This document shows, piece after piece, positions 16,901-34,998 of a DNA stretch of 64,000 bases. The stretch is from an uncultured Gammaproteobacteria bacterium (GTDB lineage: Bacteria; Patescibacteriota; Patescibacteriia; UBA10025; JAHIVO01): NCBI GenBank assembly GCA_964592105.1, contig CAZQBL010000016.1, forward strand, positions 2,560 through 66,559, given 5' to 3'. A model generated the notes under the pieces. The model did no database searches, was not told the origin of the DNA, and was given only the letters and a program-made list of their open reading frames with translations. Each line of letters starts with the position of its first letter. Position 1 is the first letter of the stretch. A program made the translations under genes and the position numbers.

Positions 16901-19131
16901 ATGACCGCGGACAAACCTGGATGCCTGTCAGCCAGTCTTATGATGTCGGCACAGAGTGGAAAGAGTTCATCGTAAAGATGAATATCTCCGAGCTGGTGGA
17001 TAACTGGATAGCCGGTGATCCCGGGAATCTTCGGCCGTCTGATAAATCGGCAATTATGTCTGAAATAAACGCAGCCAGTGATTTCAGTTTGAGATTCCAG
17101 TCGCGCACCGGCTCGGCCATTGATTTTTACCTTGATGATGTGTCCATGAAACCGGTCTTGGAAGTGCAGAACCCCCCGTCTCCCGCGACTTTGGTGCGGC
17201 GTACTTGCCGCATGTATCCGGAGTCGAATGCTTCATCCTGCACTTATACTGATGAAAATAATGTCACTCACCGTGGCTGGTACGGTTATTGTTTGGAAGC
17301 CGATCCGCACAACCCCAACTACTGCCTTAATTGGTGGCCGATAGACATATTGAGCGGTGAGACTAATATTTTTAACACTACCCAGGTCGGCTATCAGGGC
17401 CGTTCGCCATTGTATATGTGCGTCCAGGCAGAAGGGAATTATAATCAAGGAGGTTTTAACGGTGACGTGGAATGTCAGTCCAATAATAACTATTGCGGCG
17501 ATGATGTACCCATCGAACTTTGTGGTAAACAGCCCACTGGTTATTATAGAGTTTTTCATAGCCACATTGCCGGGGGAGACGTAAGCGAAGATGAGAGTTG
17601 TGCGGGAGAACATAGCTGTGGTCGTATGGAAGACTTGGCCGATTGTGACGATCAGACAATTTCAGGGATTTGTGGTTGTGACGAGACTCCTGTGGCGCCC
17701 GGCTGGCGCAATATTACCGATCCGGCTGATCAATATTATGAATGGCAGATTGATAAAATATATTGGACAGCGCAAGCGGTTTCGCACAGCGATTGGCGAC
17801 CAACCCGAGCCTATCCAGGACAATATGTACCAGGTGTTGGAGATGTTTACTTCATCACTGATCGCAGTAACAACTGGGGCAATGATCCCGGGAGTGGTCA
17901 CTGGGAATTTGCAGGTAATATTTTGGATATTCGCGTCGAATTTAATGCCCAACATCGACTTTCAAGAGTCTATGCTTATATGTTTGATGGTAGTGATAAT
18001 GAAGGCGGCGCCTGGGTTCAGGGAGTGATACAGTTGCGCGAATATTGCACGCAAATTGCCCAAGTAGTTCAATCCAATGGCGAGAACAAGGCCTGGACAG
18101 GCCGGACCACTCAATTAGCCGGCTATAAAGTTCCTGATTTGCTTTTCGGCTACACCCAGGATTATGTACCGTTTGGCGGTATTGTTCAGCCGGCTTCTTC
18201 CAGCGATCCTGAGAGCTGGTCAGCGGGCAGCGGGCTCGGACCCCTCTATATTCAAAAGACTTCGGCTTCAACCTCGCGGGGTGGAAGTCCATACAGTTGC
18301 GCTAATCCTAACGGGTGTCGTAACCGTACCTGTAGCACTGGTGAGAATGACTGTTCGGACAATAGTGATGTAATAGACTGTTATGATGGCCCCGACGATA
18401 ATATCAATTTGGCGGACGACAATGGGTATTGTATCGGTTTGGGTACCGGATTTTGTAGCGACATGAACACGGTTCTGTGTGATCAGGATTCTGATTGTGG
18501 TTCAAATGGACTATGTACTATTCCTAAATTTCCCAATAGCGGTGGCGCGGCCAATATCACCGATCCGCAGCAGGCTATCATGAGAATCAGGGAGTTATTT
18601 GCCGATGCTTACGATGCCTGGACCTGGAATCCAGCTACTGGTGAGTATGATAATACTCCTAATCTGATCACGTCAAATTGGCGGACAAGCTTTGCCGATA
18701 TGACAGTCTGCCCGGGTAATAATAGGACAGGTGCTTACCCCGCTGATTATTGCGGCGTTACGCCGGTTGCCAACAATTTCTCCGTTGGTTCAGGAAACCA
18801 GACACACATCACCGTGAACAAAGCCCAGTTGATCCAGCTTAACTTTAATATTAATGTTAATCCCGAGCAGCTGCCGATCCAGTCGGTGGAAGTAGCCTGG
18901 GATAATGATATTTTACACAATTCTCTAATCCAGGGCCCGTTCGGCAGCGGTCCGATGATGTTGGCGCATTTCTATGATGTGCCAGGTATTTATACCCCAC
19001 GCGTTCAAATAGTCGATAATTGGGGCTTCTGCAGTGATGATCCTCGGGGAGGAATGACCAGGGGTGATACTTGTACTCGTGATTTAAATCGTTGGCTTTC
19101 CTCGAATATTACTATTATGGTTAAAGATTAG
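10987..19131 (+). CDS. giant (2714 aa) secreted cysteine-rich surface protein with carbohydrate-binding-module-like (CBM4/9-like) jelly-roll domains
   Basis: A signal peptide ends AYA/QW. More than 100 Cys are present with a recurring (V/A/I)GC(Q/E/K/R)(A/E)(Y/F) motif. Three segments resemble the CBM4/9 family: ...FYAKADSASCG...YIDNVQVEEG, ...SFWAKAGGVD...FYLDSIVIKQV and ...DFYLDDVSM. Confidence 0.7.
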   Translation: MFSRKKKVKKTSSRMTLFLLVFCGWLITAPLLFYTHDAYAQWATTEVGPQLHLSIWQKIWNSLQKSLKTAGDVAFKNMLKRYLDNLAYNMATKIATGQPGQKPTYPTKPLNFLKDAGDAAAGDLLNMLVNETLPGKCEGHSYQTCLKDSDCPPVVLACHPTHAEVVMGRTLNPAKNPETKEGYNWLLTHRVCTIVKCTESSCDLPPEGYNVWSTVGICNPAGINLCTTDVALKLKLTGYARQYLEGTSGKVTSVCPLSDIIKNYNATTHQKLVDLQKYFNPQANQLGMFGEIISEGQLFKAQAVDAKKFAQSLAGEFFPQTTKISGVVKTPASLVKSAAEDILPASLDPYVTYTGSAIADAVGVFTNTLASKLMEKYIFGKGFNPGAVSPSSGSSRGLAGSIPGIAAAKLLFSSISETNYSVGGEVDLLGQLASCPDKNDPLPTNCVIDNNFRTAIEQQLTVKEALDQGLLGGNKVFGYDANGREPDYLSGYPYRSLLILRKYRIIPVGWELAAEYIKNFSGGNYSLNTLIQEYHNTSSPFYHLIDPNWVLKSPAVFCKKQGASAKIAATSQVVTGDTNHDGSVDKKDIAVTTVQREDYCADEQTCVAEADDGTCLRYGYCIEEKPIWKFEGESCLAQYNTCQTFQRRNGVSVSYLKNTIDVNGCDSSNVGCQNYYTEFNYDTKQWDNNGDQINFNKNVESCLASGEGCHEFMLVKDSGVNLQVNSDFESFTGTKDDGADDDFPGWNTPGLAEAVSVDGISGQTSAKLQAGDTLVSEPVETGSINNDRSFTVSFYAKADSASCGANPGTLTASLGRPVTAFGNVLTPVGTINLTETWTRYSGTVYLPKVAGNLETTVYVVFERNDCVGYIDNVQVEEGGLTPYKTYEDSPKLYIKKSPGYLDCAHNLTRPECAAFALACVADEVGCQAFTSVSTGEVVNGTISNPLGCNPLDPSSCNQCPAQYAGCKAYRELAITHVPQRAERDPVSFVAATGVSCPASAVGCEEYTNLDEVARGGEGTEYYTLIRQCVNEDAAGVANYYSWEGSDEFGYQLKNYRLKTTNVGGSNAPCTNMNPEGGVAPAWPNCNDSSNPADSNYWAICADPAVDTCNLATHQCNITNAACNTNQDCIDNRLAANPDCTEFYDESGNIYYRLKSRVIYASDQCINYRNSIDGASLVYHMIPGQGLSCSAAYAGCRAYKGNTGDNVRTIYQNNFENGTVNPWTGNAYYSNESVQQGGHSMLIANVANYENVGTELGFAAGNSYSISFWAKAGGVDTNISVVLNTATPLTFAGQATARSGEWNRYELGPLFVPENADLTAARLSIFSTNAFYLDSIVIKQVRDNVYFIKDSYQECSGWENCDEYVDRNNSTHYLKSFTKLCSPDKVGCSAMIDTQNSRSPFATVYPLNSTLPINNLTAPADTVTTLINDPIKYCSANDKGCQLLGKPNLDNNLNIVNFTDTYVRNNPDDYDNILCLNEEIGCEEYKVEGSSPMYFKDPGERVCEFKRVTGQEVSGWYKRGTESGAPDCPTTSGVCVAGPRAGNWCAVDSDCGVGGACSPIPERPIEDATGPWVGVCQAAASGCTEIRDPEDPQFCDARIPGDCKSYYYISNTLDKGSCNGIVSRDEGCRLFNDTSSTTLNYSADNSPDKRPPVLCSDPAGQAMDCNANTIIKIRRDRVCGTWLECRSAWPVKNKQGKIENLCLQLSACDQFDPDSGQCTHPVLQSHANETYNSPVYVDEIKNYSGLVTAGLEWGRRCKNNPNIVCTNNAQCKVCSNDVTRPCATSANCQNGGVCPDDEQAVCPATPQIIQGYYPYSTMNEVGKSGASSIDMIRNGDFGDSNAVANKIVSDYIACGDGSCGSQILAEAPIQTSEFGVWNNPLQGAGVSIGEETADGFISEQGSANLDENNVLIVSHPETYPVPAWWGVAVTIPEISSSQEFALSYKVKRSALPAGSGNRIDVFLAWDAAEQPVHDRGQTWMPVSQSYDVGTEWKEFIVKMNISELVDNWIAGDPGNLRPSDKSAIMSEINAASDFSLRFQSRTGSAIDFYLDDVSMKPVLEVQNPPSPATLVRRTCRMYPESNASSCTYTDENNVTHRGWYGYCLEADPHNPNYCLNWWPIDILSGETNIFNTTQVGYQGRSPLYMCVQAEGNYNQGGFNGDVECQSNNNYCGDDVPIELCGKQPTGYYRVFHSHIAGGDVSEDESCAGEHSCGRMEDLADCDDQTISGICGCDETPVAPGWRNITDPADQYYEWQIDKIYWTAQAVSHSDWRPTRAYPGQYVPGVGDVYFITDRSNNWGNDPGSGHWEFAGNILDIRVEFNAQHRLSRVYAYMFDGSDNEGGAWVQGVIQLREYCTQIAQVVQSNGENKAWTGRTTQLAGYKVPDLLFGYTQDYVPFGGIVQPASSSDPESWSAGSGLGPLYIQKTSASTSRGGSPYSCANPNGCRNRTCSTGENDCSDNSDVIDCYDGPDDNINLADDNGYCIGLGTGFCSDMNTVLCDQDSDCGSNGLCTIPKFPNSGGAANITDPQQAIMRIRELFADAYDAWTWNPATGEYDNTPNLITSNWRTSFADMTVCPGNNRTGAYPADYCGVTPVANNFSVGSGNQTHITVNKAQLIQLNFNINVNPEQLPIQSVEVAWDNDILHNSLIQGPFGSGPMMLAHFYDVPGIYTPRVQIVDNWGFCSDDPRGGMTRGDTCTRDLNRWLSSNITIMVKD

Positions 19132-19139
19132 CCAAAACA

Positions 19140-22100
19140 ATGATATTTAGCGGGCTTCGGAAAAAAATATCAGACAGATTTCATAAATCTACGAAACTCT
19201 TTTCATTGAGCGCGTTTTCGGTGGCGGCAATTTTTTTATTAGGTGTAATTCTTATAATCATTCCCCACTCGGCCCAGGCCGGAATTGTCGAAACTTTGGG
19301 CGAGGGTCTGGCTTGGATAATTTTGCGGGTTGTTTCCTTGCTGGGAAAACTACTCGTGCTTATTATTAATTTATTTATCAACATCGCCCAGTACAATAAT
19401 TTCATCAATTCCGTGCCGGTGAGCGTGGGCTGGAGCATTGTGCGCGATGTCTGTAACATGTTTTTCATCGTGGCTCTCTTGGTTATCGCTTTTGGCACTA
19501 TTTTGAAAATCGAACGCTACCGCTACAACCGCCTGCTGGTCAACCTCATCATCATGGCCATACTTATCAATTTTTCCAAAGTCATCGCTGGTTTTTTTAT
19601 TGATTTCGGACAGGTAGTGATGATGACTTTTGTTAATGCCTTCAAAGACGCGGCCGCGGGCAATTTCACCCAGGCCTTCCGCATGAGGGAAATATTGGAG
19701 CTGCGGGATGATATTCCCGAAATTAACACCGCTGATTTTCTGGGAGCGGCCGTTTTAGCCCTAGCTATGGTGCTTATTGCCTTGGTGGTAATGATTGCTC
19801 TTTTGGTAGTGATTTTGGTCAGGATTATAATGTTGTGGATTCTGGTGGTGCTCTCCCCCTTGGCTTATCTGCTGTCGGTTTTGCCCGGCTCCTGGCAGCA
19901 GCAGTCCTCCAAGTGGTGGTCAAATTTTGGTAAATGGGTAGCTATTGGTCCGGTTCTGGCTTTTTTTGTCTGGTTGTCATTGACTGTTATCGGCGATCCG
20001 AGTGGCACCAAGGATTTTATTACTACAACCAAGGATGAGGTTAGCGCCAGCGGTCAGCTGGTAGAAACGGTAGGCAATGACAGGTTATCAGCGGCCATTA
20101 CTAAAGCCTCGTCAACTGATAACATGCTGGGATTTGCTTTGGGCATTTCCATGCTGATAATGGCGTTATTAACCGCCCAGCAAATGGGCGGGATAGCTGG
20201 AAATTTTGCGGGCAAGGCCCTAAATAAAATCCAAAGCGGTGCTATGGCCGTGACGGGCGCGCGCTGGGTTCAGGACAGATGGCGGGCTTTTCAGGGCATG
20301 CGTGAGCAAAAACGCAAAGAAAAAGCGGCCAGGTTTGGCGCCAGGGCTTATGGTATTTACGAAGGCGCTAAAAGCATCCCCGGAGCAGCGTTTAAAGCCG
20401 CGGGCAAAGGCATTGATTATGTCGCGGAGAAGGCCGGTAAAAAAATTGCTGGTGATGGCACTAGTAGATTCAGAAAGGGAGCCGGCTGGGTTGCCGAAAA
20501 AGCTATTAAAGTTGGTGCGCGCTCGTTAGTGGTTGGAGGCGCGGGCGCTTTGACTGGTGGAGCGGGTTTTGGCTTGGCGCTCGGGGGCGTCGCCACCCCG
20601 CTGGCTTTGACGACCGCCAAAATGATGAGGGAAGGCAGTAAGGGGGTAAGTGATTTTACGAAAAAATTGGAAAAAGGTTTCATGAACAGGGTCGCTGCTT
20701 CCATGACCGAAAAAGGCGATTTCGTGGATTCAAACGGAAAAGCAGTTGATTCAAGCGTGAGGGGTCATTACGCATATGATAACCGAGCCGGAGCTTATTT
20801 AAAGGATACAACCATGGCCAGGTTTAAAAATCTTGATTTACAGGGCGTTAGCTATGATGACACAGAAAAAAAATGGCAAGCTCATGTGAAGAGGTCTGAT
20901 GGTAGTATAGAAAAGATACATTTAGGAAACGACGAATTATTAACTAAAGATGGGTCGCTGGTTGATAAATATGGAAAAATTGAGGATGTTGATAACCCTG
21001 ATTTGAAGTATAAATATGATCAAGAAGCGATGACTTATTATCGGGTTAATGATCGCGGCGAAGCCGTGGATAAAGACGGAAGGATTGCCCAAAAATTAGA
21101 AGACCGCGTTTACGCTGGAGGTAAAAGGTTGCCTAAATTCGTTCAGGAACTGGGCTATGGTTGGGCTTTGGGCAGGACCCAGTCCTGGGCTTTGCGCGCC
21201 AGAGGTGAACAGGAAAGAATTAGCAAAAGTTCCCAGGAAATGATCGCGGCCGGGATTTCTCCGGAATTGATGCACCGCGGTCTTAATGATAACAATTTAT
21301 CCAATGACGCTCGTCTGGCTCGCGGTCTGGCTTTGGCGGCTAGAGACGGCTTCAAGGGTATGGACGTGTCCATGGCCCGCGCCGACGTGGAACTCATAAA
21401 GAAATTGACCGCCTCCAATACTTTATTGGCTAAAGAATTTCAGGAAAACATGTACAAGCGCTTTGCGCATTTGTACCATGATTTGTCCACGGAAACCGGC
21501 CGAGGCCAGCTGAAAAAAGCCGCGGCGGAAGGCCGGGTGGATTTAACCCGCCAGGACGATTCATCATTGACTCCAGATTTTTTGAAAGTTATGAGGGATC
21601 ATTTTGGTAAAAAATATCTATCTAAGCTGGAAGATGCCGCTTCAACTGATGATCGAGAGAAGAAGATAATCAGTTCTTTGAAGTCTTTGGTTAATGAGCT
21701 TGGCAATCAAGTAAGAGATGAAAAAGGTGATAAAAGGATTCTGCCCGATCGTTTGGCCTTGGCAAATATCAGTGGCGATCTGCCAACCGCACTGGGTCGA
21801 GTTATAAAAGATAAAGATACTGGTGAAGAGAGAATGAATCCAGAATATTCCAATAATGTCGCGGATTTCATTAAAAATGCTAAAGTTGAACATATTATCA
21901 AAATAAACCCTGATTTGATTGATATCGACGAAAACGGCCTGATAAATAATGAGGCAATTAAAAGATTGATTGATAAATATAATTTGCAAGGAGACGAGCA
22001 AGCGAAAATTGATCAGGCCAAGGCACTTATTAACGCTACGATAGAGGGCTTCAAGGCTATAGATAAAAATCAAATAAATTCCGTGCTCAGATCGAGAGAA

Positions 22101-22232
22101 GCAACACAGAGATTGAAGGTATTGATTGATAGGGTTTATAAAAAAACTCACGCAAATGAACAAGATAATGTGGATAAGCAAAATGATGGAGATCAGGATG
22201 AGGAAGAAGATAAGGGTTCAGCAATAAAATAA
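19140..22232 (+). CDS. VirB6/TrbL-like polytopic membrane protein with a long hydrophilic C-terminal extension
   Basis: The first ~350 aa carry at least 6 TM helices. A Gly/Ala-rich segment and about 550 aa of charged, coiled-coil-like sequence follow. The protein sits in a T4SS-like gene neighbourhood; the assignment rests on topology and context only. Confidence 0.45.
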   Translation: MIFSGLRKKISDRFHKSTKLFSLSAFSVAAIFLLGVILIIIPHSAQAGIVETLGEGLAWIILRVVSLLGKLLVLIINLFINIAQYNNFINSVPVSVGWSIVRDVCNMFFIVALLVIAFGTILKIERYRYNRLLVNLIIMAILINFSKVIAGFFIDFGQVVMMTFVNAFKDAAAGNFTQAFRMREILELRDDIPEINTADFLGAAVLALAMVLIALVVMIALLVVILVRIIMLWILVVLSPLAYLLSVLPGSWQQQSSKWWSNFGKWVAIGPVLAFFVWLSLTVIGDPSGTKDFITTTKDEVSASGQLVETVGNDRLSAAITKASSTDNMLGFALGISMLIMALLTAQQMGGIAGNFAGKALNKIQSGAMAVTGARWVQDRWRAFQGMREQKRKEKAARFGARAYGIYEGAKSIPGAAFKAAGKGIDYVAEKAGKKIAGDGTSRFRKGAGWVAEKAIKVGARSLVVGGAGALTGGAGFGLALGGVATPLALTTAKMMREGSKGVSDFTKKLEKGFMNRVAASMTEKGDFVDSNGKAVDSSVRGHYAYDNRAGAYLKDTTMARFKNLDLQGVSYDDTEKKWQAHVKRSDGSIEKIHLGNDELLTKDGSLVDKYGKIEDVDNPDLKYKYDQEAMTYYRVNDRGEAVDKDGRIAQKLEDRVYAGGKRLPKFVQELGYGWALGRTQSWALRARGEQERISKSSQEMIAAGISPELMHRGLNDNNLSNDARLARGLALAARDGFKGMDVSMARADVELIKKLTASNTLLAKEFQENMYKRFAHLYHDLSTETGRGQLKKAAAEGRVDLTRQDDSSLTPDFLKVMRDHFGKKYLSKLEDAASTDDREKKIISSLKSLVNELGNQVRDEKGDKRILPDRLALANISGDLPTALGRVIKDKDTGEERMNPEYSNNVADFIKNAKVEHIIKINPDLIDIDENGLINNEAIKRLIDKYNLQGDEQAKIDQAKALINATIEGFKAIDKNQINSVLRSREATQRLKVLIDRVYKKTHANEQDNVDKQNDGDQDEEEDKGSAIK

Positions 22233-23706: not shown

Positions 23707-25014
23707 ATGGTTGAGGAAAACCAAAACAATATCTTTCCCGGGGGCTTTTTAATCAAGGATAAAAGTGGCCAGTTAAAAAAAGTCCAAGACGATAAAATAG
23801 TGGATTATAAGCCGGTTGGCCCAACAATCACTTCAGGTCAGCCAGCAGAAATGACGTCAAAATCTCAGCCACTACCTAAGCAACCTGTAAGATCCCAGCC
23901 AAGACCAATAGCATCTACTCTCCCTCTAGCCCCTCAACCACCGCTGTCTTCCTCTCCTCATGCGGCTTTTTATTTTTCCCCGGAAGATGAGGACGAAATA
24001 AAAAAACATGCCGAAGCCCTGAAAGAGATAATGGCCAAGCCCACAGAAACCGTGGTGGTCTCGGATACGACAGACGTCAGTTCCGCGATTAAGAGTATTA
24101 TTCAGAAAAACGGTATTAATTTCAATGATGAGGTTTTGAATAAGCGTTTTGGCAAAGTGATGGAATCTTTTTTCAATGATGTTCGCACCGGGCTGGAAAC
24201 TGAGGAAGTGCTGACTCGCCCGCAGAAAATTGGCGGTTTAGCCTTGGCGCCTGAAGTAGCCAAAAAAATTGTGGATAATGCCATAACTGAAGCGAATAAA
24301 ATTAGGGCTGCCAAAATTTCGCCAATCATGACTGGAACTCAAGGCCGGCCATTGAAAACAGCAATGGTCGAAAAATCAGATTTAAGTAAGGCGCCGCCGG
24401 ATTTTATACCACGACCCCAGCCCAAACCCACTGCTCCCCCGGTACCGCCACCCTCGTCCATGCCCAGTCAGCCGTTGAAAACTAAAGTTGAAATTAGTCA
24501 GGCCGAAGAACCAAAAATAGCATCTTCTGTCTCCCGGCCGCCTTTGGCCACGAAATTTTCGGCACCGCCGACTCCCCCTGCCTCGCCGTTGGTTCTGGAG
24601 AGGCCTCAGGAGACGATGACGAACATCGCTTATAAAAGGCCGTCCGAGCCGAGCCGGCCGCAGATGGTAGATATCAAACAGCCGATTAAGGTTGTTGGAC
24701 CGGTTGAGGAAATGGCTGAAATAGATTTGGCGGAATTTCGCAAGTTCAGCCCCAACCCTTATGAGGCAGCCAAAAGAGTTTTGGAGAAAATCCAGCTGCT
24801 GCAAGAAGATTCTTGGCAGATGAGACTGGACGGCATCAAGGCCTGGAAAAAATCGGAAACCTATCAACTTTATTTGGCTTTGGGTCGTGAGAGTCTGGAA
24901 GGTGGTGTGGGTCTTGATAGCGTCATCAAAACGAGAAAGCAGGACAATAAGCCGTATTTGGAAAAAGAGGAGTTTCTGGCCATAAATGAACTTAATAATA
25001 GTTTGACTTTCTAA
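23707..25014 (+). CDS. proline-rich hypothetical protein
   Basis: 435-aa ORF with Pro-rich tracts (PQPKPTAPPVPPPSS, PPTPPASP). Its stop lies 2 nt before the start of the next gene. Confidence 0.4.
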   Translation: MVEENQNNIFPGGFLIKDKSGQLKKVQDDKIVDYKPVGPTITSGQPAEMTSKSQPLPKQPVRSQPRPIASTLPLAPQPPLSSSPHAAFYFSPEDEDEIKKHAEALKEIMAKPTETVVVSDTTDVSSAIKSIIQKNGINFNDEVLNKRFGKVMESFFNDVRTGLETEEVLTRPQKIGGLALAPEVAKKIVDNAITEANKIRAAKISPIMTGTQGRPLKTAMVEKSDLSKAPPDFIPRPQPKPTAPPVPPPSSMPSQPLKTKVEISQAEEPKIASSVSRPPLATKFSAPPTPPASPLVLERPQETMTNIAYKRPSEPSRPQMVDIKQPIKVVGPVEEMAEIDLAEFRKFSPNPYEAAKRVLEKIQLLQEDSWQMRLDGIKAWKKSETYQLYLALGRESLEGGVGLDSVIKTRKQDNKPYLEKEEFLAINELNNSLTF

Positions 25015-25016
25015 AA

Positions 25017-25439
25017 ATGGATCAATTCGTTGTCCCACAATTCATCGACGTAGAAAACAAAATCATCGGTCCTTTGACCGTCAGGCAGTTTTTGACTTTT
25101 CTGGTAGGGGCCGGACTTATGTTTGTGGTTTTTAAGTTGGCCAGTTTTTGGCTGGCGGCTATAGAAAATTTGTTTATTTTTGCCCTGACCGGAGTTTTCG
25201 CTTTTTTCAAGATTAATGGCCGGCCATTTCATTATTTTGTTCTGAACATGATTCAGACTTTGCGCCGTCCGATTCTGAAAGTGTGGAATAAAGAGACATC
25301 CGTGATTCAAAAGAAAAAAGAAGACAAAAAGGAAGAGCCGCCCAAAATTATTGTTAAAAAACACGTGACCGCTTCGCGCTTAAGCGAGCTTTCGCTGGTG
25401 GTTGATACCGGCGGCGCGTATCGCGAAGGCGAAGTTTGA
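25017..25439 (+). CDS. VirB3/PrgI-like small two-TM membrane protein
   Basis: 140 aa. The motif IGPLTVRQFLTFLVGAGL is followed by two hydrophobic helices. The gene sits immediately upstream of the VirB4 ATPase gene, as virB3/prgI does in T4SS operons. Confidence 0.45.
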   Translation: MDQFVVPQFIDVENKIIGPLTVRQFLTFLVGAGLMFVVFKLASFWLAAIENLFIFALTGVFAFFKINGRPFHYFVLNMIQTLRRPILKVWNKETSVIQKKKEDKKEEPPKIIVKKHVTASRLSELSLVVDTGGAYREGEV

Positions 25440-25535: not shown

Positions 25536-26219
25536 GTGGCTCAAGCTAAAGATAAAATTTCTAAAAAACAAACCCTGCCATCCACTCAGAAGTATTTACC
25601 TATTACCGAAATTCGAGATAATGTGATTATCATGAAAGACGGAACATTGCGCGGTGTGATTTTGGTGTCATCAATAAACTTTTCACTTAAATCGGAGGAG
25701 GAACAAAACGCCGTGATTCAAGGCTATATCCAATTTTTGAATTCTTTGGAATTTCCTTTGCAAGTTTTAGTTCAGTCGCGCAAGCTCAATATAGACGACT
25801 ATTTGGAACGGCTGAAAAACATTGAAAAAGAACAAACCAATGAACTTTTGAAGATGCAAACCAGGGAATACCGACAGTACATCGCCGAGCTGGTACAGCT
25901 GGCTGATATCATGAGTAAGAAGTTTTACATGGTGGTGCCTTTCTCCGCGGCCACCATGAAGTCCAAGGGTTTTTTTGCCCGCTTAAAAGAAGCGATTTCA
26001 CCGACTTCGGAAATTATAATCAAACAGAAAAAATTCGAAAACTACCGCTTGGAACTGGCTAAGCGCCTGGAATACATTATTGACGGTTTGAGCTCTATCG
26101 GCTTACAGGCCGTTCCTTTGGATACTCAGAGCTTGATCGAGCTTTTCTACAATACCTATAATCCGGACACATACGATCAGCAAAGGTTAGTGGACATCAA
26201 TAAACTCAATCTCGACTAA
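25536..26219 (+). CDS. VirB4/TrbE N-terminal domain encoded as a separate ORF
   Basis: LPITEIRDNVIIMKDGTLRGVILVSSINFSLKSEEEQNAVIQGYIQFLNSL...QVLVQSRK follows the conserved start of VirB4 family proteins. Compare A. tumefaciens VirB4 LPYIGHLSDHIVLLEDGSIMSIARIDGVAFELEEIE...FNTLFRNI...HLVRH. GTG start. Confidence 0.55.
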   Translation: MAQAKDKISKKQTLPSTQKYLPITEIRDNVIIMKDGTLRGVILVSSINFSLKSEEEQNAVIQGYIQFLNSLEFPLQVLVQSRKLNIDDYLERLKNIEKEQTNELLKMQTREYRQYIAELVQLADIMSKKFYMVVPFSAATMKSKGFFARLKEAISPTSEIIIKQKKFENYRLELAKRLEYIIDGLSSIGLQAVPLDTQSLIELFYNTYNPDTYDQQRLVDINKLNLD

Positions 26220-26221
26220 TT

Positions 26222-28114
26222 ATGGTGGAATTATTTCGCAAAACAAAAGTAATGCCGACCGAGACCCCGCCGGAGTTAAGCCCAGCAGAACAGCAGCAAC
26301 TGGCTCGCGAGCAGCTTGAAGAAAAAAAGGAATTATTGGAAGCGGAACGAGTTTATCGACGAGGCGTAACTACGGTTAAGGATTTAATTGCACCGGCTGC
26401 CATGAAAGTGGAGTCAAAATACTTGGAGCTTGGCTCGCAGTTCGTGCGCACGCTTTTTGTGGTCACTTACCCGCGTTATATCCGGGTAGGTTGGTTCGCG
26501 CCCATTATCAATCTCAACGTGCCTTTGGATATAGCCATGTATTATTATCCTATCGGCTCCGAAGTTATTCTAAAACAATTAAGGAATAAGGTCGGCGCTT
26601 TGGAGGCGCAAATATTGTCAGACGCGGAAAAAGGAGCCCCGCGCGATCCTATCCGCGAAACAGCTTTGCGGGATATTGAAAAATTACGTGATGATTTGAC
26701 CCAGGGCGTGGAGAGATTTTTCCAATTCGCCCTGTATGTGACTCTTTACGCGGGTAGCAAGGATGAGCTGGATAAGATATCCGAAAAAGTGGAATCATTA
26801 TTCGGTTCCAAGCTGGTTTATACCAAACGCGTGCTGTATCAGTCCGAGCAAGGGTTCAACTCTACTTTGCCTTTGGCTAATGATGAACTAGGTATCAGTT
26901 TCAATCTTTCTACTTCTCCATGCGCCTCGTCTTTTCCTTTCATTTCTTCGGAACTTACTTCTGACAACGGTATTCTTTACGGCATCAACCGCCATAATAA
27001 CAGTTTAATTTTGTTTGACCGATTTTCTTTGCAAAATGCTAATTCAGTAGTCTTTGCCACTTCCGGCGCCGGAAAAAGTTACGCCGTAAAACTGGAAATT
27101 TTGCGAAGTATGATGTTGGGCACGGACGTTATTGTTATCGACCCGGAAATGGAATACAAATATTTATCCGACGCGGTCGGCGGCACTTACATTAATATTT
27201 CATTAAGTTCAGAAAGCAAAATAAATCCTTTTGACCTGCCTCGCCCTACCCGCAAAGATGAAAAAACATCGGATATAATTCGTTCGGCGGTTATTACCTT
27301 AAAAGGTCTTTTGCGTCTAATGTTAGGTCAATTTACACACGAAGAAGATTCACTTGTTGATCGGGCGCTTATCGAAACATATGCCAAAAAAGATATTACC
27401 AGCGATTCGGATTTAACTCATATTGAGCCGCCAATTTTCAAGGATTTTGAGGAAGTGCTGGAAGGTATGGTCGGAGCTGAAGATCTGGTAGTGCGGTTGA
27501 AAAAATACACCGAGGGTACTTTCGCCGGTCTGCTGAACAATCCAACCAACGTGGAACTGAATAATCAGCTGGTGGTTTTTTCCGTGCGCGATCTGGAGGA
27601 CGAATTAAAACCAGTAGGCATCTCCCTGATCGTGTCTTATATTTGGAATGTGGTTCGCTCCAGACTGAAAAAGCGTATCATGGTTATTGACGAAGGTTGG
27701 TGGTTGATGCAACAGGAAGATTCGGCCAAGTTCATTTATGCCCTGGTCAAGCGCTGCCGTAAGTATTATTTGGGAGTTACGACCATTACTCAGGATGTGA
27801 ACGATTTTTTACGCTCTCCATACGGCCAGGCGATAGTTACCAATTCATCCATACAGTTGCTAATGAAACAATCCCCGGCGGCCATCGATCTTATTGCCAA
27901 AACTTTTTTACTGACCGAAGGTGAAAAATACCTTCTTCTGGAATGCGGCGTGGGCGAGGGTATATTCTTTGCCGGTTCAAAACATGCCGCCATTAAAATC
28001 GTAGCTTCCTATACCGAAGATCAAATAATCACTTCCGATCCTAGGCAGCTTTTGGAGATTGAGCAAGCCAAGAAAGAGTTTGATCAGGCGCAGATGCAAC
28101 AGACACAAGGGTAG
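26222..28114 (+). CDS. virB4: VirB4/TrbE/CagE-family type IV secretion ATPase (central and C-terminal part)
   Basis: Walker A is FATSGAGKSYAVK and Walker B is IMVIDEGWWLM. VirB4-type blocks VTYPRYIRVGWFAPI and GVTTITQDVNDF are present. Confidence 0.85.
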   Translation: MVELFRKTKVMPTETPPELSPAEQQQLAREQLEEKKELLEAERVYRRGVTTVKDLIAPAAMKVESKYLELGSQFVRTLFVVTYPRYIRVGWFAPIINLNVPLDIAMYYYPIGSEVILKQLRNKVGALEAQILSDAEKGAPRDPIRETALRDIEKLRDDLTQGVERFFQFALYVTLYAGSKDELDKISEKVESLFGSKLVYTKRVLYQSEQGFNSTLPLANDELGISFNLSTSPCASSFPFISSELTSDNGILYGINRHNNSLILFDRFSLQNANSVVFATSGAGKSYAVKLEILRSMMLGTDVIVIDPEMEYKYLSDAVGGTYINISLSSESKINPFDLPRPTRKDEKTSDIIRSAVITLKGLLRLMLGQFTHEEDSLVDRALIETYAKKDITSDSDLTHIEPPIFKDFEEVLEGMVGAEDLVVRLKKYTEGTFAGLLNNPTNVELNNQLVVFSVRDLEDELKPVGISLIVSYIWNVVRSRLKKRIMVIDEGWWLMQQEDSAKFIYALVKRCRKYYLGVTTITQDVNDFLRSPYGQAIVTNSSIQLLMKQSPAAIDLIAKTFLLTEGEKYLLLECGVGEGIFFAGSKHAAIKIVASYTEDQIITSDPRQLLEIEQAKKEFDQAQMQQTQG

Positions 28115-28337: not shown

Positions 28338-28916
28338 ATGGTCATGACCGAAAATAATAAAAGGATATTAATCGTTGTTGTTGTAGTTGTGATTGTCGCC
28401 GCGGCTTTCGTGATTTGGTGGTTGACACGACCAGCCGAAGAAATAATCGGCAACACCAATACCACGCCCGTGAACAACGCCCAAACTGTAGTTATCAACA
28501 CCAATACCGCCGCCAACCAGAATACCAACGCTCAAACCGAAGAGCAGGTAGCCATGGTGCGTTTGGCCAATCTTTTTACTGAGCGCTTCGGCAGCTATTC
28601 TTCTGAAGCGGAATTTCAGAATATTATTGATTTGAAAAAGTTTATGACGACTAAAATGCAATCTTGGGCCGATACTTACGTGACCACGCATAAAAAAACT
28701 CTTAATAGTCAAAGCACCTTTATATCCATAACTACCAAAGTGCTGTCAACTACAGTAAACAGTTTTTCGGATAAAAAAGCCGAGGTTCGCTCCACGACTT
28801 CGCGGGTTGAGGAGGGAGAAAATACCAATGACGTTAGAGCCTATAATCAGGATATTGTTTTACAGCTTGTAAAACAGGGGAATGACTGGAAAGTAGATAG
28901 TGCCTTTTGGCAATAA
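28338..28916 (+). CDS. membrane-anchored protein, possibly VirB8/PrgL-like (NTF2-like fold)
   Basis: An N-terminal TM helix, an Asn/Thr/Gln-rich linker, then a globular domain of about 120 aa that ends in W. The call rests on position downstream of virB4 and on topology; sequence similarity is not demonstrable by eye. Confidence 0.3.
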   Translation: MVMTENNKRILIVVVVVVIVAAAFVIWWLTRPAEEIIGNTNTTPVNNAQTVVINTNTAANQNTNAQTEEQVAMVRLANLFTERFGSYSSEAEFQNIIDLKKFMTTKMQSWADTYVTTHKKTLNSQSTFISITTKVLSTTVNSFSDKKAEVRSTTSRVEEGENTNDVRAYNQDIVLQLVKQGNDWKVDSAFWQ

Positions 28917-29829: not shown

Positions 29830-31032
29830 ATGACAACGCGCCGAATTTTTCTTCTGGCCATGGTAACTTATTTTATCCTTATCACCATCCTGTTTTTAGT
29901 TATGCCCCAGCTGGTGCGCGCGGCCGATACTTCAGTAGATAACAGTTGCAAAATAGGCAGCTCCAAAGAGGAAAAAGAGGCGGCCATCCGAGTAGCCATT
30001 CCTTTGCCGGGAGTAACCCAAAAAGTAACAATTTCAAATACGGAGTCATATAATGCCGTTAAAAATTTGTCCTGCTATTTGTCCGGCTTTTACCGTTATT
30101 TTGCCGGGGTGGCCGGTATTTTGGCCACGGTGATGATTATGTACGGGGGAATTCAGTACGTGATTTCTTTCGGCAATTCGGGCCGCTTGCAAGCGGCCAA
30201 AGACACTATTTTTTCGGCTATGGTCGGACTGGTTATTACCCTGGGTTCATATATTATTCTTTTTACAATCAATCCTAATTTAGTAACCCTAAAATTGCCG
30301 GAAGTTGGTAAGATTTATACTATTAACATAGATACCGATTGGTGTTTGTCTTCGGCTGGAGATATGCCTGTAGTCCCGGGCAGCACAGGCTGCGGCGATA
30401 AGGGCTTGCATACTGAAAATGGAACCCAGACAGAATGCATTTGGCAGGGTGATTGCGGGCAGAGTGGTCAAATTTGTTTCTATGGGCTTGGAGGTTATAA
30501 ATGTCGGGACCCCAAGGATACGTGTAAAAGTAGCTATAGCGATTTATGCCAGCAGGTCAGTCGCGCGATATATGCCGCCGGACTTACTTCTGGGGCCTGT
30601 GCGTCCAAGCCGCCCGACAGCCAGGAATGCGCCTGGGAAGAGCAGCTGCGTTGCCCGGACAACTGGGTCAGGGTAGACTGCACTTTTCACGGCATCGGTG
30701 ATCTCATTTCGACTCCCTGCACTGAAGTATTGGATAGTGTAAAATATTATTCTCTTGGTGGAGGCATGTTTCCCACGTTTTGTTTTGATTTCAGTGAGCG
30801 CCCGGTGGCTGCAGCCAACATTGAGTCAATCTGTTGCGCAGAACAGAGAGACATAGACTGCCGCTGGCCAAAAGGTAGGGGGCCGCTATTTGGGAACGAG
30901 ATCAATAGCAACGAAGTCCAGGTTGACTGCGCCCAATATCCCCCCCAACAATATCCGAACGCCTGTACTCAAGACGAGATTAGGCAGGGGATGATCTGCG
31001 CTATGCAGCTCGAACAACGTAATCGTAATTAA
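29830..31032 (+). CDS. pilin-like (VirB2/TrbC-like two-helix module) membrane protein with large cysteine-rich extracellular domain
   Basis: A signal/TM segment is followed by GVAGILATVMIMYGGIQYVISFGNSGRLQAAKDTIFSAMVGLVITLGSYIILFTINPNLV. This module is paralogous to the one in the gene at 32305. The ~250 C-terminal aa contain about 20 Cys. Confidence 0.5.
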   Translation: MTTRRIFLLAMVTYFILITILFLVMPQLVRAADTSVDNSCKIGSSKEEKEAAIRVAIPLPGVTQKVTISNTESYNAVKNLSCYLSGFYRYFAGVAGILATVMIMYGGIQYVISFGNSGRLQAAKDTIFSAMVGLVITLGSYIILFTINPNLVTLKLPEVGKIYTINIDTDWCLSSAGDMPVVPGSTGCGDKGLHTENGTQTECIWQGDCGQSGQICFYGLGGYKCRDPKDTCKSSYSDLCQQVSRAIYAAGLTSGACASKPPDSQECAWEEQLRCPDNWVRVDCTFHGIGDLISTPCTEVLDSVKYYSLGGGMFPTFCFDFSERPVAAANIESICCAEQRDIDCRWPKGRGPLFGNEINSNEVQVDCAQYPPQQYPNACTQDEIRQGMICAMQLEQRNRN

Positions 31033-32304: not shown

Positions 32305-33654
32305 ATGTTTGTTTTTAGGCCCACTGAAAAAATTTTGTGGTTGGGATTATGGCTAGCATTAATTTTTGCATTAATTCCGTTACATCAGGCCCTGGCCGAT
32401 TGCTGTTATGGCGGGGCTGGCCTTTGCGGTCTGCCGGATCCAGTGGAGCGCAGTTGTACAAATGGCTGGTCTTATTTGCCCGGTGACTGTCCGCAGGACT
32501 GCAACCAGCCGGCGCCCGGCGCGCTCATTCAATGCTGTATTTGTCAGCCCTCAACGCCTGGTGAGATCGTAGTTTGTGGCAAACCGGTGACCGACGCTGA
32601 ATTTCCCTGCGGCGCTTCATTGGATTGCCGGCAGAGCCAGTTTTCATGCCAAGATCTAAATAATAATCCACAATGCGCAGAGTGGCTGAAAATAAGCGGT
32701 GAAACCGAGAAGTCTGAGTCACTGTTTTTTGAATTAAATTTTTCTATACCGGGCTCTGAGATATTTAACGCTGGCAAGTCCATAAAGATAACTGGCGCTA
32801 CTTTAGGAGAATATATTGTGGCGCTTTATGTTTTTTTGGTTGGCGTCGGCGGTATCTTGGCTACGATCATGATGATGTGGGGAGGTTTACGGTACGTGGT
32901 TTCCGGAGGCAGTCCCCAGCGGATTTCAGAGGCCAAAGACCAGATCACTGCCGCACTCTCTGGCTTTATAATCTTATTGGCTTCTTATTTGTTGTTATTA
33001 ACGATCAATCCCAACTTGGTGAAGTTCGAGGGATTGTCCGGCGTCAGACCGGTCGAGCAAATTCTCCAAAGCCTGGAGAGCAAGTCAAGCTCGGCTAAAG
33101 GCATGCCGCCGGTTAAGTGGGAAGGAGACAACGTTTCCTGTTTTGATAAGGAAATAACTGATATTGCCGCTCAAAAAGGCGTTGACCGGAACTGGCTAAA
33201 GGCCATAATGCTGGTTGAATCGTCTGGCCATGAAAAAATAGTTTCTTCAGCCGGGGCATGCGGCCTGATGCAGCTTTTGCCGCAAACCGCTAATAAATCC
33301 TGTACGGAATTGAAAGACCCCATTACCAATATTACGGCCGGGGCCGATTATTTTCTCTTCCTTAAGCAGAATGCCTGCCCCAGAGAAAATGCCAAGCATC
33401 CATGTAATTGGGGGCCGGTTTGTGATATTACGAATATGGATTTTGTGCTCGCCGCTTATAACGGCGGGCCGGGAGCTAACTGGTGCAGCGTGACCTGTAA
33501 ACAAGAAACCTGGTGGCAGTGTATCGGAAATCCTGGGTATGCAGAAACCAGAAACTATGTTATTAAGGTAAAACAAGCTTATGATAAAGTCAGCAGTGGT
33601 CTCGTTCCGTTTGTGTGGCAGCCAGATGAAACTTGTACTGGTATTGATGGATAA
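32305..33654 (+). CDS. cysteine-rich protein with pilin-like two-helix membrane module fused to a VirB1-type soluble lytic transglycosylase (SLT) domain
   Basis: SLT motifs LVESSGHEKIVSSAGACGLMQL, ITAGADYF and AAYNGGPGA. Upstream module GVGGILATIMMMWGGLRYVVSGGSPQRISEAKDQITAALSGFIILLASYLLLLTINPNLV. An N-terminal signal peptide plus a Cys-rich domain. Confidence 0.7.
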   Translation: MFVFRPTEKILWLGLWLALIFALIPLHQALADCCYGGAGLCGLPDPVERSCTNGWSYLPGDCPQDCNQPAPGALIQCCICQPSTPGEIVVCGKPVTDAEFPCGASLDCRQSQFSCQDLNNNPQCAEWLKISGETEKSESLFFELNFSIPGSEIFNAGKSIKITGATLGEYIVALYVFLVGVGGILATIMMMWGGLRYVVSGGSPQRISEAKDQITAALSGFIILLASYLLLLTINPNLVKFEGLSGVRPVEQILQSLESKSSSAKGMPPVKWEGDNVSCFDKEITDIAAQKGVDRNWLKAIMLVESSGHEKIVSSAGACGLMQLLPQTANKSCTELKDPITNITAGADYFLFLKQNACPRENAKHPCNWGPVCDITNMDFVLAAYNGGPGANWCSVTCKQETWWQCIGNPGYAETRNYVIKVKQAYDKVSSGLVPFVWQPDETCTGIDG

Positions 33655-33660
33655 TTATTT

Positions 33661-34998
33661 ATGCCCAAAGTAAAAACCATTTTTGTTTGCAGTAAATGCG
33701 ACGCTCAGTTTCCTAAGTGGCTCGGTCGTTGTTCCGAGTGCGGTGCTTGGAGCAGCTTGAAACAGGAGGTGGCCATGAAAAAAGGTCCGGCGGTACCGGT
33801 CGGTCAGCTGGAAACGCTCTCTGAGGTCGAGAACTCAACTACTGATCGTTTGAAAAGCGGTATTTATGAATTTGACAGGGTGGTAGGCGGCGGCATAGTG
33901 CCTGGCAGCTTGGTTTTGCTGGGCGGCGATCCGGGCATCGGGAAATCAACCCTGATTCTGCAGGTAGCCGGTAAGCTAGCTGAAAGCGGACAGGAAGTTT
34001 TGTATATTTCCGGAGAAGAATCGTCTTCCCAGGTTAAAATACGGTTTTCACGTCTGGGGCTTTCTACTTCGAATTTGAAATTTCTTGGAACAACTGACAT
34101 TGATACGGTGGTGGCCACAGTTAATCAGTTCCGTCCGTCTCTGGTTATTTTGGATTCCATTCAGACGATGTCTGATCAGTCGATAGCCTCGGCCGCCGGT
34201 AGCGTAGCTCAGGTACGAGCCGCGACTAGCAAACTAACTACCGTAGGTAAAGGGAATATGATTCCCATAATCATCATCGGTCATGTGACAAAAAAGGGAA
34301 ATGTAGCCGGTCCACGCACTTTAGAACATCTGGTGGATGTGGTTTTATACTTGGAAGGTGACCGTAGTCATATTTTTCGGGTTTTACGCGGCGTTAAAAA
34401 CCGTTTCGGTTCGACTTCCGAGGTCGGAGTTTTCGATATGCAGAAAGGCGGCTTGAAAGAAGTGGCTAATCCTTCGCAGATATTTTTATCCGAACGAAAA
34501 AGTCAGAACCCCGGTTCGGTAGTGGCCGCTATTATCGAAGGTTCCCGAGCTTTTTTGGTGGAAGTTCAAGCCCTAGTTTCTCGTTCGAATTTCGGCTATC
34601 CCCAACGGCGTGTTTCCGGATTTGATTTTAATCGCTTGCAATTGTTAGTGGCCGTTCTGATGAAGAAAGCCCATTTGTTTTTGAGCAATCAGGATATTCA
34701 CGTCAACGTGGCCGGCGGGTTTAAAGTAACCGAGCCGGCCATTGATTTGGCGGTGTGTCTGGCTATTGCTTCGGCCCATAAAAATAAAATTATTCCGCCG
34801 GAGGTAGCAGTTTTTGGTGAGGTGGGTTTGGGCGGCGAAATCAGGGCGGTGGCCCAAAGCGACCAGCGTTTGGAAGAAATAAAAAAAATGGGATTTAAAG
34901 AAGTGATTATGCCAACAACCCGGCTTATTGACGAACCAAAAGGCTTGCAGTTGGTATTTGGCCATTCCGTTGATGAAGTTGTAAGTAATTATCTATAA
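33661..34998 (+). CDS. radA: DNA repair protein RadA/Sms
   Basis: N-terminal C4 zinc finger CSKCDAQFPKWLGRCSECGAW, Walker A GGDPGIGKSTL, the KNRFG motif and a Lon-protease-like C-terminal domain. Confidence 0.95.
   Translation: MPKVKTIFVCSKCDAQFPKWLGRCSECGAWSSLKQEVAMKKGPAVPVGQLETLSEVENSTTDRLKSGIYEFDRVVGGGIVPGSLVLLGGDPGIGKSTLILQVAGKLAESGQEVLYISGEESSSQVKIRFSRLGLSTSNLKFLGTTDIDTVVATVNQFRPSLVILDSIQTMSDQSIASAAGSVAQVRAATSKLTTVGKGNMIPIIIIGHVTKKGNVAGPRTLEHLVDVVLYLEGDRSHIFRVLRGVKNRFGSTSEVGVFDMQKGGLKEVANPSQIFLSERKSQNPGSVVAAIIEGSRAFLVEVQALVSRSNFGYPQRRVSGFDFNRLQLLVAVLMKKAHLFLSNQDIHVNVAGGFKVTEPAIDLAVCLAIASAHKNKIIPPEVAVFGEVGLGGEIRAVAQSDQRLEEIKKMGFKEVIMPTTRLIDEPKGLQLVFGHSVDEVVSNYL

Follow-up and report, generated by a model that had tools for sequence, protein, structure and literature searches.

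Collinear, complementary parts of VirB4 predicted from two adjacent genes in a patescibacterial type IV secretion locus

One-gene and two-gene forms of VirB4 in described systems

The chromosomal type IV secretion systems (T4SSs) of Patescibacteria (CPR) are described as having VirB4, an adjacent TrsD homolog, PrgI/VirB3, VirB2-like pilins and no relaxase (Wang et al. 2023, PMC10633639; PMC12102498, here and below in the portions of that paper drawn on), and epibiotic growth is known to require T4SS genes (PMC10633639). According to Quinonero-Coronel et al. 2025 (PMC12102498), TrsD is a remote homolog of the VirB4 N-terminus and, next to virB4, the most abundant T4SS component in Patescibacteria; 1,664 of its 2,272 homologs adjoin virB4, and the homolog in Ca. 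Southlakia epibionticum ML1 is essential. In Gracilibacteria, TrsD homologs mostly lie apart from virB4 (PMC12102498), so the adjacency of trsD and virB4 is not universal. The two-gene arrangement of TrsD with a shortened VirB4 is normal and conserved in Patescibacteria and has already been published. TrsD is treated there as a separate component of unknown function, and the portions of PMC12102498 drawn on here do not say explicitly that TrsD and the VirB4 of Patescibacteria complement each other as halves of a canonical VirB4. The phrase 'split VirB4' was not found in the literature searched, and TrsD is not named in the main text of Guglielmini 2014, though it is the paper cited for the homology of TrsD with VirB4.

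A comparable pair of genes is present in pSK41, one of the pGO1/pSK41 staphylococcal conjugative plasmids, which belong to MPF_FATA, pGO1 subclass. Its trsD (227 aa) lies downstream of small membrane-protein genes and immediately upstream of the gene for a 672-aa VirB4-type ATPase. The two are labeled 'trsD' and 'DUF87 domain-containing protein' in the plasmid record, and we take them to be TraD and TraE (TrsD/TrsE). Canonical VirB4, on the other hand, is a single chain, as in TrwK of R388, CD1110 of Firmicutes ICEs and the VirB4 of the Mycoplasma ICE. In R388, the VirB4 N-terminal domain (residues 15-400 in TrwK) is wrapped by VirB3 and forms the dimer interface (PMC9259494). Some conjugative systems have VirB3-VirB4 fusions, of which the 2025 survey found none in Patescibacteria (PMC12102498).

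The locus and its genes

The window analyzed here, a stretch of 64,000 nucleotides taken as a whole, carries a chromosomal T4SS locus of the ABY1-class type, in which we refer to the two genes of interest as ORF1 and ORF2. Its features are as follows.

23707..25014, + strand: proline-rich 435-aa protein, no Pfam family
25017..25439, + strand: PrgI-family (VirB3-like) membrane protein, 140 aa (Pfam PrgI, 1.6e-8, 35.4 bits against a cut-off of 27)
25536..26219, + strand: ORF1, GTG start, 227 aa
26217..26224, + strand: TAA-tt-ATG junction, read directly (ORF1 stop at 26217-26219, 2 nt, ORF2 start at 26222)
26222..28114, + strand: ORF2, ATG start, 630 aa, in a frame different from that of ORF1
27059..27079, + strand: Walker A motif TSGAGKS, ORF2 residues 280-286, located in the translation
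27677..27697, + strand: Walker B motif IMVIDEG, ORF2 residues 486-492, located in the translation
28338..28916, + strand: 192-aa protein with an N-terminal hydrophobic segment, directly downstream of VirB4, no significant Pfam match
29830..31032, + strand: 400-aa protein with a borderline T4SS_pilin match (residues 85-137) and a Cys-rich C-terminal part
32305..33654, + strand: 449-aa protein with T4SS_pilin (1.7e-9) and SLT lytic transglycosylase (2.2e-18) domains, both above cut-off
33661..34998: RadA/Sms ATPase gene

An earlier note on this DNA had described two adjacent ORFs in different frames with an ATG 2 nt after a TAA, and its coordinates proved exact. The lengths of the two products sum to 857 aa, and the stop and start at the junction are probably coupled in translation. 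Sites resembling promoters and terminators are as frequent as expected by chance.

Compared with the patescibacterial T4SSs described above, the locus shows no substantive difference and is one more instance of them. Its gene order is also shared by relatives. Among 80 related loci, 74 have a homolog of the 435-aa protein upstream and 70 a homolog of the 192-aa protein downstream, in both cases on the same strand, while a PrgI homolog precedes the ORF1 homolog in all 76 loci with enough upstream DNA. The 435-aa proline-rich gene is the conserved first gene of this core block. The T4SS_pilin match of the 400-aa protein (6.8e-6, 26.5 bits) falls just under the cut-off of 26.6 and is flagged as weak on the JGI contig L086. 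This contig is the sole other one found with the exact ORF2; it matches the window without a difference across 9893 nt, and thus represents the same sequence rather than an independent replicate of the assembly. The SLT domain of the 449-aa protein is predicted to provide a VirB1-like activity. The window contains no relaxase, and neither VirD4 nor VirB11 was found in it. VirB4, which the earlier note had called the only ATPase of the locus, is the sole ATPase of T4SS type in the window, but not the sole ATPase gene, given that of RadA/Sms. The flanking radA and recG and the upstream ksgA match the context reported for class ABY1 (PMC12102498, portions drawn on here).

Correspondence of the two proteins to VirB4

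ORF1, a TrsD-like or 'TraC-like' (PF26593) protein, is the counterpart of the first ~200 residues in canonical VirB4, a stretch that makes up the N-terminal half of that protein's N-terminal domain. Among the NCBIfam profiles, it matches VirB4_plasma at positions 92-281 of 894 (E = 6e-11), conju_CD1110 at positions 2-163 of 752 (E = 1.5e-6), TrsD/TraD (NF041427) at positions 13-142 of 201 (E = 3.7e-6), and TIGR00929 VirB4 at positions 6-138 of 792 (E = 1.2e-5). The resemblance to VirB4 N-termini that the earlier note had seen by eye is therefore recovered with profiles. The match to NF041427 (26.9 bits) does not reach the cut-off of 200 bits, and by this NCBI criterion ORF1 would count as a remote relative of TrsD rather than a member of the family. 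A precomputed, unmarked PF26593 match (E ≤ 1e-5) is carried by the same 227-aa protein as encoded on L086 and by each of the best 120 of 3751 ORF1 homologs, these 120 being 206-250 aa in length; in a scan with a Pfam copy that does not include PF26593, ORF1 gave nothing above threshold. Clustering at 50% identity leaves 2732 ORF1 representatives, and the best 150 of them range from 116 to 443 aa, with many at 300-443 aa. The ORF1 sequences show 55 invariant columns, including a C-terminal motif, LDTQ..IE..Y.T.NP. When the AF2 model of ORF1 (pLDDT 68) was compared with the PDB by Foldseek, the five best matches were all TrwK/VirB4 of R388, though weak (E 0.05-0.2, TMq up to 0.42), and the ORF1 profile gave only chance-level matches to PDB sequences.

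ORF2 is the VirB4 core: it begins with the other half of the N-terminal domain, continues with the C-terminal ATPase domain, and so makes up the remainder of VirB4 as the earlier note had it. It matches conju_CD1110 at positions 153-730 of 752 (353.2 bits, above the cut-off of 325) and VirB4_plasma at positions 285-893 of 894, and it also matches Pfam P-loop_TraG (9e-29, 100.7 bits against a cut-off of 25.8), AAA_10 (39.2 bits against 27.5) and DUF87 (above cut-off). Sequence matches in the PDB include 4AG5, the C-terminal domain of Thermoanaerobacter VirB4 (4e-48, ORF2 residues 245-604), and TrwK (7O41, 1.2e-6). In an alignment of 19 homologs, Walker A residues G282, A283, G284, K285 and S286 and Walker B residues V488, I489, D490 and E491 are invariant. 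The AF2 model of ORF2, made from a low-diversity 19-sequence alignment, has a pLDDT of 45.7, too low to support comparing folds. The best 120 ORF2 homologs are 549-682 aa in length. Because the ORF2 match starts only at position 153 of 752 in one profile and 285 of 894 in the other, VirB4 without ORF1 would be N-terminally incomplete.

The profile spans of the two proteins adjoin in both conju_CD1110 (2-163 and 153-730) and VirB4_plasma (92-281 and 285-893), and by this measure ORF1 and ORF2 are collinear, complementary parts of a full-length VirB4, almost without overlap. ORF2 alone does not span the whole VirB4 profile, whereas the pair does so end to end. It is also evident that the pair agrees with canonical single-chain VirB4 in total length, domain order and the Walker A/B core, whereas its chain is broken inside the N-terminal domain. 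Moreover, a 1344-aa plasmid protein of Rubrobacter marinus is a fused form collinear with both ORFs, with ORF1 residues 16-204 aligning to its residues 120-314 and ORF2 residues 56-619 to its residues 379-967. ORF1 was also considered as a duplicate or paralog of the ORF2 N-terminus and rejected (profile-profile hhalign probability 0.1%); BLASTP between the two gave only a weak alignment of ORF1 63-95 with ORF2 90-122.

A stand-alone small protein directly upstream of a shortened VirB4 is found in the window, in all 80 related loci and in pSK41, where TrsD has the same length as ORF1. The breakpoint in pSK41 lies within ~20 residues of that in the window. On the ATPase side, ORF2 54-593 aligns with 36-617 of the pSK41 ATPase (5e-48), and the alignment of TrsD 32-112 with ORF1 15-94 is marginal (hhalign E = 1.3e-4, 80 columns, probability 53%). 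pSK41 differs in being a conjugative plasmid that encodes a relaxase as well as a coupling protein resembling VirD4, whereas the locus in the window is chromosomal and has VirB2-like pilin genes. The VirB3-VirB4 fusions of some conjugative systems resemble the present case in the fluidity of gene boundaries around the VirB3/VirB4 N-terminal interface, but they are fusions, whereas the present case would be a fission, with PrgI encoded by a separate gene.

Conservation of the split and its interpretation

To see how the junction varies, we turn to the 80 related loci, which come from 80 other species-level Patescibacteria genomes with differing junction sequences. The ORF1 and ORF2 homologs are adjacent, in the same order and on the same strand, with a stop between them in all 80. 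Intergenic distances lie between about -41 and +511 nt, these values, chiefly the large ones, being approximate since starts of ORF2 homologs were chosen heuristically as the start codon nearest the aligned N-terminus; this choice has no effect on the finding of a stop between the genes. Frequently, stop and start overlap or almost abut. The frame offset is 0, 1 and 2 in 19, 34 and 27 loci, respectively, and the 19 loci with both genes in frame still carry the stop. Every relative has its own ORF2 start codon (ATG in 75 of 80), and the start context ATG-GTx/GCx/TTT is recurrent. In 72 loci both genes are matched over nearly their full length, and neither homolog contains an internal stop there. 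The nearest homologs come from Patescibacteria/Kerfeldbacteria MAGs, and no relative of VirB4 length was found among the best 120 homologs of ORF1, the best 120 of ORF2 or the best 150 of the ORF1 representatives at 50% identity.

Both genes are under strong purifying selection. We compared pN with pS instead of using dN/dS, as even comparisons with the closest genomes show saturation at synonymous sites. For ORF1, pN is 0.13-0.24 and pS 0.83-0.90 (saturated), and for ORF2 pN is 0.08-0.15, with pS across both genes at 0.77-0.94 (saturated). ORF1 evolves faster than ORF2, with a mean pairwise distance of 0.43 vs 0.26. Pairwise distances in ORF1 closely track those in ORF2 (r = 0.81, Mantel P ≤ 0.001), which shared ancestry alone would also predict.

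It is thus very probable that the window carries a genuine, anciently fixed two-gene VirB4, whose halves would assemble as one VirB4-equivalent. ORF1 and ORF2 would be co-transcribed within the conserved block that runs from the 435-aa protein through PrgI/VirB3, ORF1 and ORF2 to the 192-aa protein. Their complementarity, their synteny and the fused Rubrobacter homolog suggest that the two polypeptides may associate non-covalently into a VirB4-equivalent subunit. By analogy with R388, in which VirB3 wraps the membrane-proximal surface and the VirB4 dimer makes contacts there, ORF1 could supply part of that surface. The assembled hexameric ATPase would then power a chromosomal, relaxase-less, pilin-bearing T4SS in an ABY1-type context.

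A different explanation is that ORF1 is an independent accessory protein, a TrsD-type paralog derived from a VirB4 N-terminus and now separate, for example as an adaptor, a regulator or a pilin-handling factor. Its faster evolution, the many ORF1 representatives of 300-443 aa among the best 150, and the joining of ORF1-like modules to other parts in Firmicutes megaplasmids and a haloarchaeal plasmid could all be explained in this way. However, ORF2 lacks the region that ORF1 supplies, the two are collinear with the fused Rubrobacter protein, and they remain adjacent in 80/80 loci, frequently with overlapping or near-abutting stop and start. We therefore regard an accessory role as improbable.

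Far less probable still is a frameshift from sequencing or assembly, or a recent inactivating mutation that turned a single virB4 into a pseudogene. The sole support for such a lesion is that the two ORFs abut in different frames and sum to a normal VirB4 length. Against it, the break falls at the same protein site in 80/80 other genomes with differing junctions, 19 of them in frame with a stop; the junction has no homopolymer, the nearest being A7 at 26322; the two halves, with their conserved termini, evolve under purifying selection; stand-alone homologs number in the thousands; and the arrangement has already been published (PMC12102498). Because relatives carry the same two-gene arrangement with separate starts throughout, the split is real and not a lesion. 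Programmed ribosomal frameshifting or stop bypass yielding one ORF1-ORF2 polypeptide, to which the 2-nt spacing and an ORF2 frame that stays open upstream of its ATG, for 18 nt only, might point, is scarcely credible given the lack of an X XXY YYZ slippery heptamer in the overlap window and of any Rfam match around the junction, the unconserved frame relation, the gaps of up to hundreds of nucleotides and the separate start codon in every relative. Of the three readings offered in the earlier note, the genuine two-gene VirB4 is hence strongly supported, whereas frameshift and inactivating mutation are rejected by the comparison of orthologous loci that it had proposed.

For annotation, these results imply that, when a patescibacterial VirB4 of ~630 aa is preceded by a small gene labeled 'hypothetical' or 'TraC family', that gene should not be marked as frameshifted or broken; likewise, the T4SS in the window should be read as intact. 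The latter matters because this system is reportedly required for living as an epibiont in the only member amenable to genetics. In biological terms the gain is small, and no new kind of system is added. Since the two genes divide VirB4 within its N-terminal domain and not at a domain boundary, the TrsD-VirB4 pair is a natural 'split-protein' experiment, which could help to map the part of VirB4 that VirB3 docks onto.

Paenibacillus pSC2 and the megaplasmid of C. difficile BI1 share this breakpoint, each with a PrgI gene upstream, and so does a haloarchaeal plasmid. It is conceivable, though we hold it only tentatively and think it rather unlikely, that the first ~200 residues of VirB4 are an ancient autonomous module, with a gene boundary common to Patescibacteria, pGO1/pSK41-type plasmids, Firmicutes megaplasmids and haloarchaeal plasmids. 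If so, the two-gene state may be ancestral for much of MPF_FATA, and canonical VirB4 would be a fusion; alternatively, the module may be a detachable VirB3-docking adaptor, whose separate dosage would regulate assembly of the ATPase on its membrane platform. The ORF1-like versions in the Firmicutes megaplasmids bear an N-terminal hydrophobic helix and ~100 additional C-terminal residues, and the haloarchaeal version forms the C-terminus of a 1075-aa protein. On this view, the VirB4 N-terminal module can occur free, membrane-anchored or appended to this 1075-aa protein.

Two genes sharing one VirB4 profile

The VirB4 of the window is divided between two adjacent genes:

25536..26219, + strand: ORF1, TrsD-like ('TraC-like') protein, 227 aa, GTG start
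26222..28114, + strand: ORF2, VirB4 core with the ATPase domain, 630 aa, ATG start

Both ORFs lie exactly where the earlier note had placed them. In the sequence, two nucleotides (tt) separate the ORF1 stop TAA (26217-26219) from the ATG of ORF2, so the two frames differ. Upstream of this ATG the frame of ORF2 stays open over just 18 nt, a stretch that contains neither an X XXY YYZ slippery heptamer nor a homopolymer (the closest one, A7, is at 26322). The ORF1 start is GTG in the window; of the 19 relatives with an alignment extending to residue 1, 17 use ATG. The N-terminal MA is conserved.

The alignment to VirB4 that the earlier note had made by eye is reproduced by NCBIfam profiles, in which ORF1 takes the N-terminal positions and ORF2 the remainder. 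ORF1 matches positions 2-163 of 752 in the CD1110-family VirB4 model, 92-281 of 894 in the Mycoplasma-ICE VirB4 model and 6-138 in TIGR00929, and ORF2 covers 153-730 in the CD1110 model (353 bits, cut-off 325) and 285-893 in the Mycoplasma-ICE model. ORF2 bears the Pfam domains P-loop_TraG, AAA_10 and DUF87, its Walker A and Walker B motifs are intact and invariant, and its match to 4AG5, a solved structure of the VirB4 C-terminal domain, reaches 4e-48. Judged by profile coverage, the two ORFs are complementary and not redundant. Because no similarity between ORF1 and ORF2 is detectable, ORF1 is not a copy of the N-terminus of ORF2 itself. ORF1 also matches the staphylococcal small-protein family TrsD/TraD of NCBIfam (3.7e-6, far under the family cut-off); the Pfam family for the small protein is PF26593 'TraC-like', and some members bear the NCBI name 'TraC family protein'. 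The AF2 model of ORF1 is of moderate confidence (pLDDT 68), and in Foldseek each of its five best PDB matches is a TrwK/VirB4 chain from the R388 T4SS; these matches are weak (E 0.05-0.2, TMq up to 0.42) and are taken only as consistent with a VirB4 identity.

Related genomes and the nature of the split

The 80 best related loci were sampled from bacterial and archaeal assemblies with one genome per species, and all are Patescibacteria MAGs. The earlier note held that the same two-gene arrangement throughout the relatives, with independent conserved starts, would speak for a genuine split and not a lesion, and this is what the sample contains: in 80/80 loci a stop closes the ORF1 homologue (51-77% identity), and next on the same strand comes the ORF2 homologue (53-88%), starting with ATG in 75. 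The stop-to-start distance varies between about -41 and +511 nt (overlap in 11 loci, 0-10 nt in 27, 11-50 nt in 21 and longer in 21). The two homologues are in frame in 19 loci, where a stop between the genes is nonetheless present, and in the other two frame relations in 34 and 27.

The lengths of homologues across the databases agree. ORF1 has 3751 homologues, the best 120 of which are all 206-250 aa, and the best 120 ORF2 homologues are all 549-682 aa; HMMER, run exhaustively over 1.84 billion representatives, gave 2732 ORF1 relatives, the best 150 of them all 116-443 aa. None of these three sets of best matches includes a VirB4-length protein.

Together, the 80-locus comparison and these lengths reject the three readings in which the break is not a real gene boundary. 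Programmed frameshifting is contradicted by the varying frame relation and the lack of a slippery heptamer, and a frameshift error by a two-gene state that occurs in every locus and in all frames. A pseudogene is contradicted as well: the break is universal in the sample, both genes are free of internal stops in all 72 loci where each has a near full-length match, and nonsynonymous divergence from the closest genomes (pN 0.13-0.24 for ORF1, 0.08-0.15 for ORF2) is far below that at the saturated synonymous sites (pS 0.77-0.94). ORF1 keeps its C-terminus and the motif LDTQ..IE..Y.T.NP right up to the stop.

ORF1 and ORF2 are separate, adjacent, co-oriented and selectively maintained genes, and they are co-inherited, their pairwise distances being correlated (r = 0.81). 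Stop and start abut or overlap in about half of the relatives, the usual signature of translational coupling. We infer that the two products join to form a single subunit equivalent to VirB4. In VirB4 of R388, VirB3 wraps the N-terminal domain (residues 15-400), which makes the dimer interface and binds VirB8 tails (PMC9259494). By profile coordinates ORF1 corresponds to the first half of this domain, and on these grounds it may be expected to pack on ORF2 residues ~50-250 and to add to the PrgI/VirB3-binding surface. The earlier note, which had weighed a two-subunit VirB4, a frameshift and an inactivating mutation, is therefore partly supported: conservation in all loci, selection and homologue lengths uphold the genuine two-subunit VirB4, with assembly of the products as the inferred part, and speak against the other two.

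Some record titles in the sample are doubtful. L013, L016, L017, L021, L022 and ~25 further related loci are titled 'uncultured Gammaproteobacteria bacterium isolate binchicken_... / SRP...' and have a Patescibacteria-type locus with ORF1 identity of 52-60%; the organism names in these titles look like placeholders or mislabels.

Neighbourhood of the gene pair

The core block consists, in order, of a 435-aa proline-rich protein, PrgI (VirB3-like), ORF1, ORF2 and a 192-aa protein, present in 74, 79, 80, 80 and 70 of the 80 loci, and PrgI is present in 76/76 loci with enough upstream DNA. On the 5' side lie ksgA, leuS and giant ORFs, and on the 3' side two pilin-domain proteins, then radA and recG:

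9170-10051: ksgA, upstream of the T4SS block
10987-19131, +: giant ORF, 2714 aa, CBM_4_9 (the sole Pfam match among the four giant ORFs)
19140-22232, +: giant ORF, 1030 aa, no Pfam match
23707-25014, +: 435-aa proline-rich protein, without family assignment
28338-28916, +: 192-aa protein, N-terminal hydrophobic segment, without family assignment
29830-31032, +: 400-aa protein, T4SS_pilin match just under the Pfam cut-off, long Cys-rich C-terminal part
32305-33654, +: 449-aa protein, T4SS_pilin domain fused to an SLT lytic transglycosylase
33661-34998, +: radA/sms, directly 3' of the T4SS block
35675-37756, -: recG, directly after the block with radA/sms
47251-51198, +: giant ORF, 1315 aa, no Pfam match
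53477-62779, +: giant ORF, 3100 aa, no Pfam match

No VirD4, VirB11 or relaxase was found within the window, and its T4SS is chromosomal, not on a plasmid or ICE. The flanking 435-aa and 192-aa proteins may supply the VirB8/VirB6-type components that are missing. The fusion in the 449-aa protein places a VirB1-like enzyme on a pilin-like membrane segment; at 449 and 400 aa, both T4SS_pilin-domain proteins are unusually large. The 1030-aa gene and a 370-aa gene just 5' of the block are conserved in ~22 of the 80 related loci.

The two-gene VirB4 arrangement in Patescibacteria is already published. In the survey of 3,035 Patescibacteria genomes by Quinonero-Coronel et al. 2025 (PMC12102498), 2,272 TrsD homologues were found, 1,664 with virB4 association, to which Gracilibacteria are an exception; the TrsD homologue of Ca. 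Southlakia epibionticum ML1 is listed there as essential, after the Tn-seq work of Wang et al. 2023 (PMC10633639). The survey also describes T4SS loci of class ABY1 as commonly having recG, radA and comF, and the radA/recG/ksgA neighbourhood of the window is the one it gives for this class, in agreement with best matches that are affiliated with Kerfeldbacteria. No paper using the phrase 'split VirB4' was found in the literature searched. The present analysis adds detail only, namely the explicit complementarity of the halves, the junction statistics, a breakpoint common to Firmicutes megaplasmids and a haloarchaeal plasmid, and a fused counterpart in Rubrobacter.

Counterparts beyond Patescibacteria

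A tblastn search of plasmids with ORF1 revealed the same order in Paenibacillus polymyxa pSC2 (L081 3603-6853), where PrgI is followed by a 332-aa protein and a 641-aa DUF87 protein, and in the 300-kb replicon of C. difficile BI1 (L082 3570-6782), where it is followed by proteins of 322 and 640 aa. The TrsD-like proteins of both (322-332 aa) have an N-terminal hydrophobic helix. The split VirB4 recurs here in surroundings that are uncharacterised; both replicons are Firmicutes megaplasmids classed as non-mobilizable, with a sigma-70 factor gene just 5'. In the haloarchaeal Salinibaculum sp. KK48 plasmid (L083 1550-7350) the ORF1-like module forms residues 818-1055 of a 1075-aa protein, after which comes a separate 843-aa DUF87 ATPase; another, very large DUF87 gene lies downstream. 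In pSK41, trsD (227 aa) is directly 5' of a 672-aa ATPase, whose residues 36-617 align with ORF2 54-593. By the ORF1 and ORF2 alignments, the break falls in the same place in all four plasmids. The fused state occurs in a Rubrobacter marinus plasmid as a single 1344-aa protein, to which the two ORFs are collinear (ORF1 with residues 120-314, ORF2 with residues 379-967).
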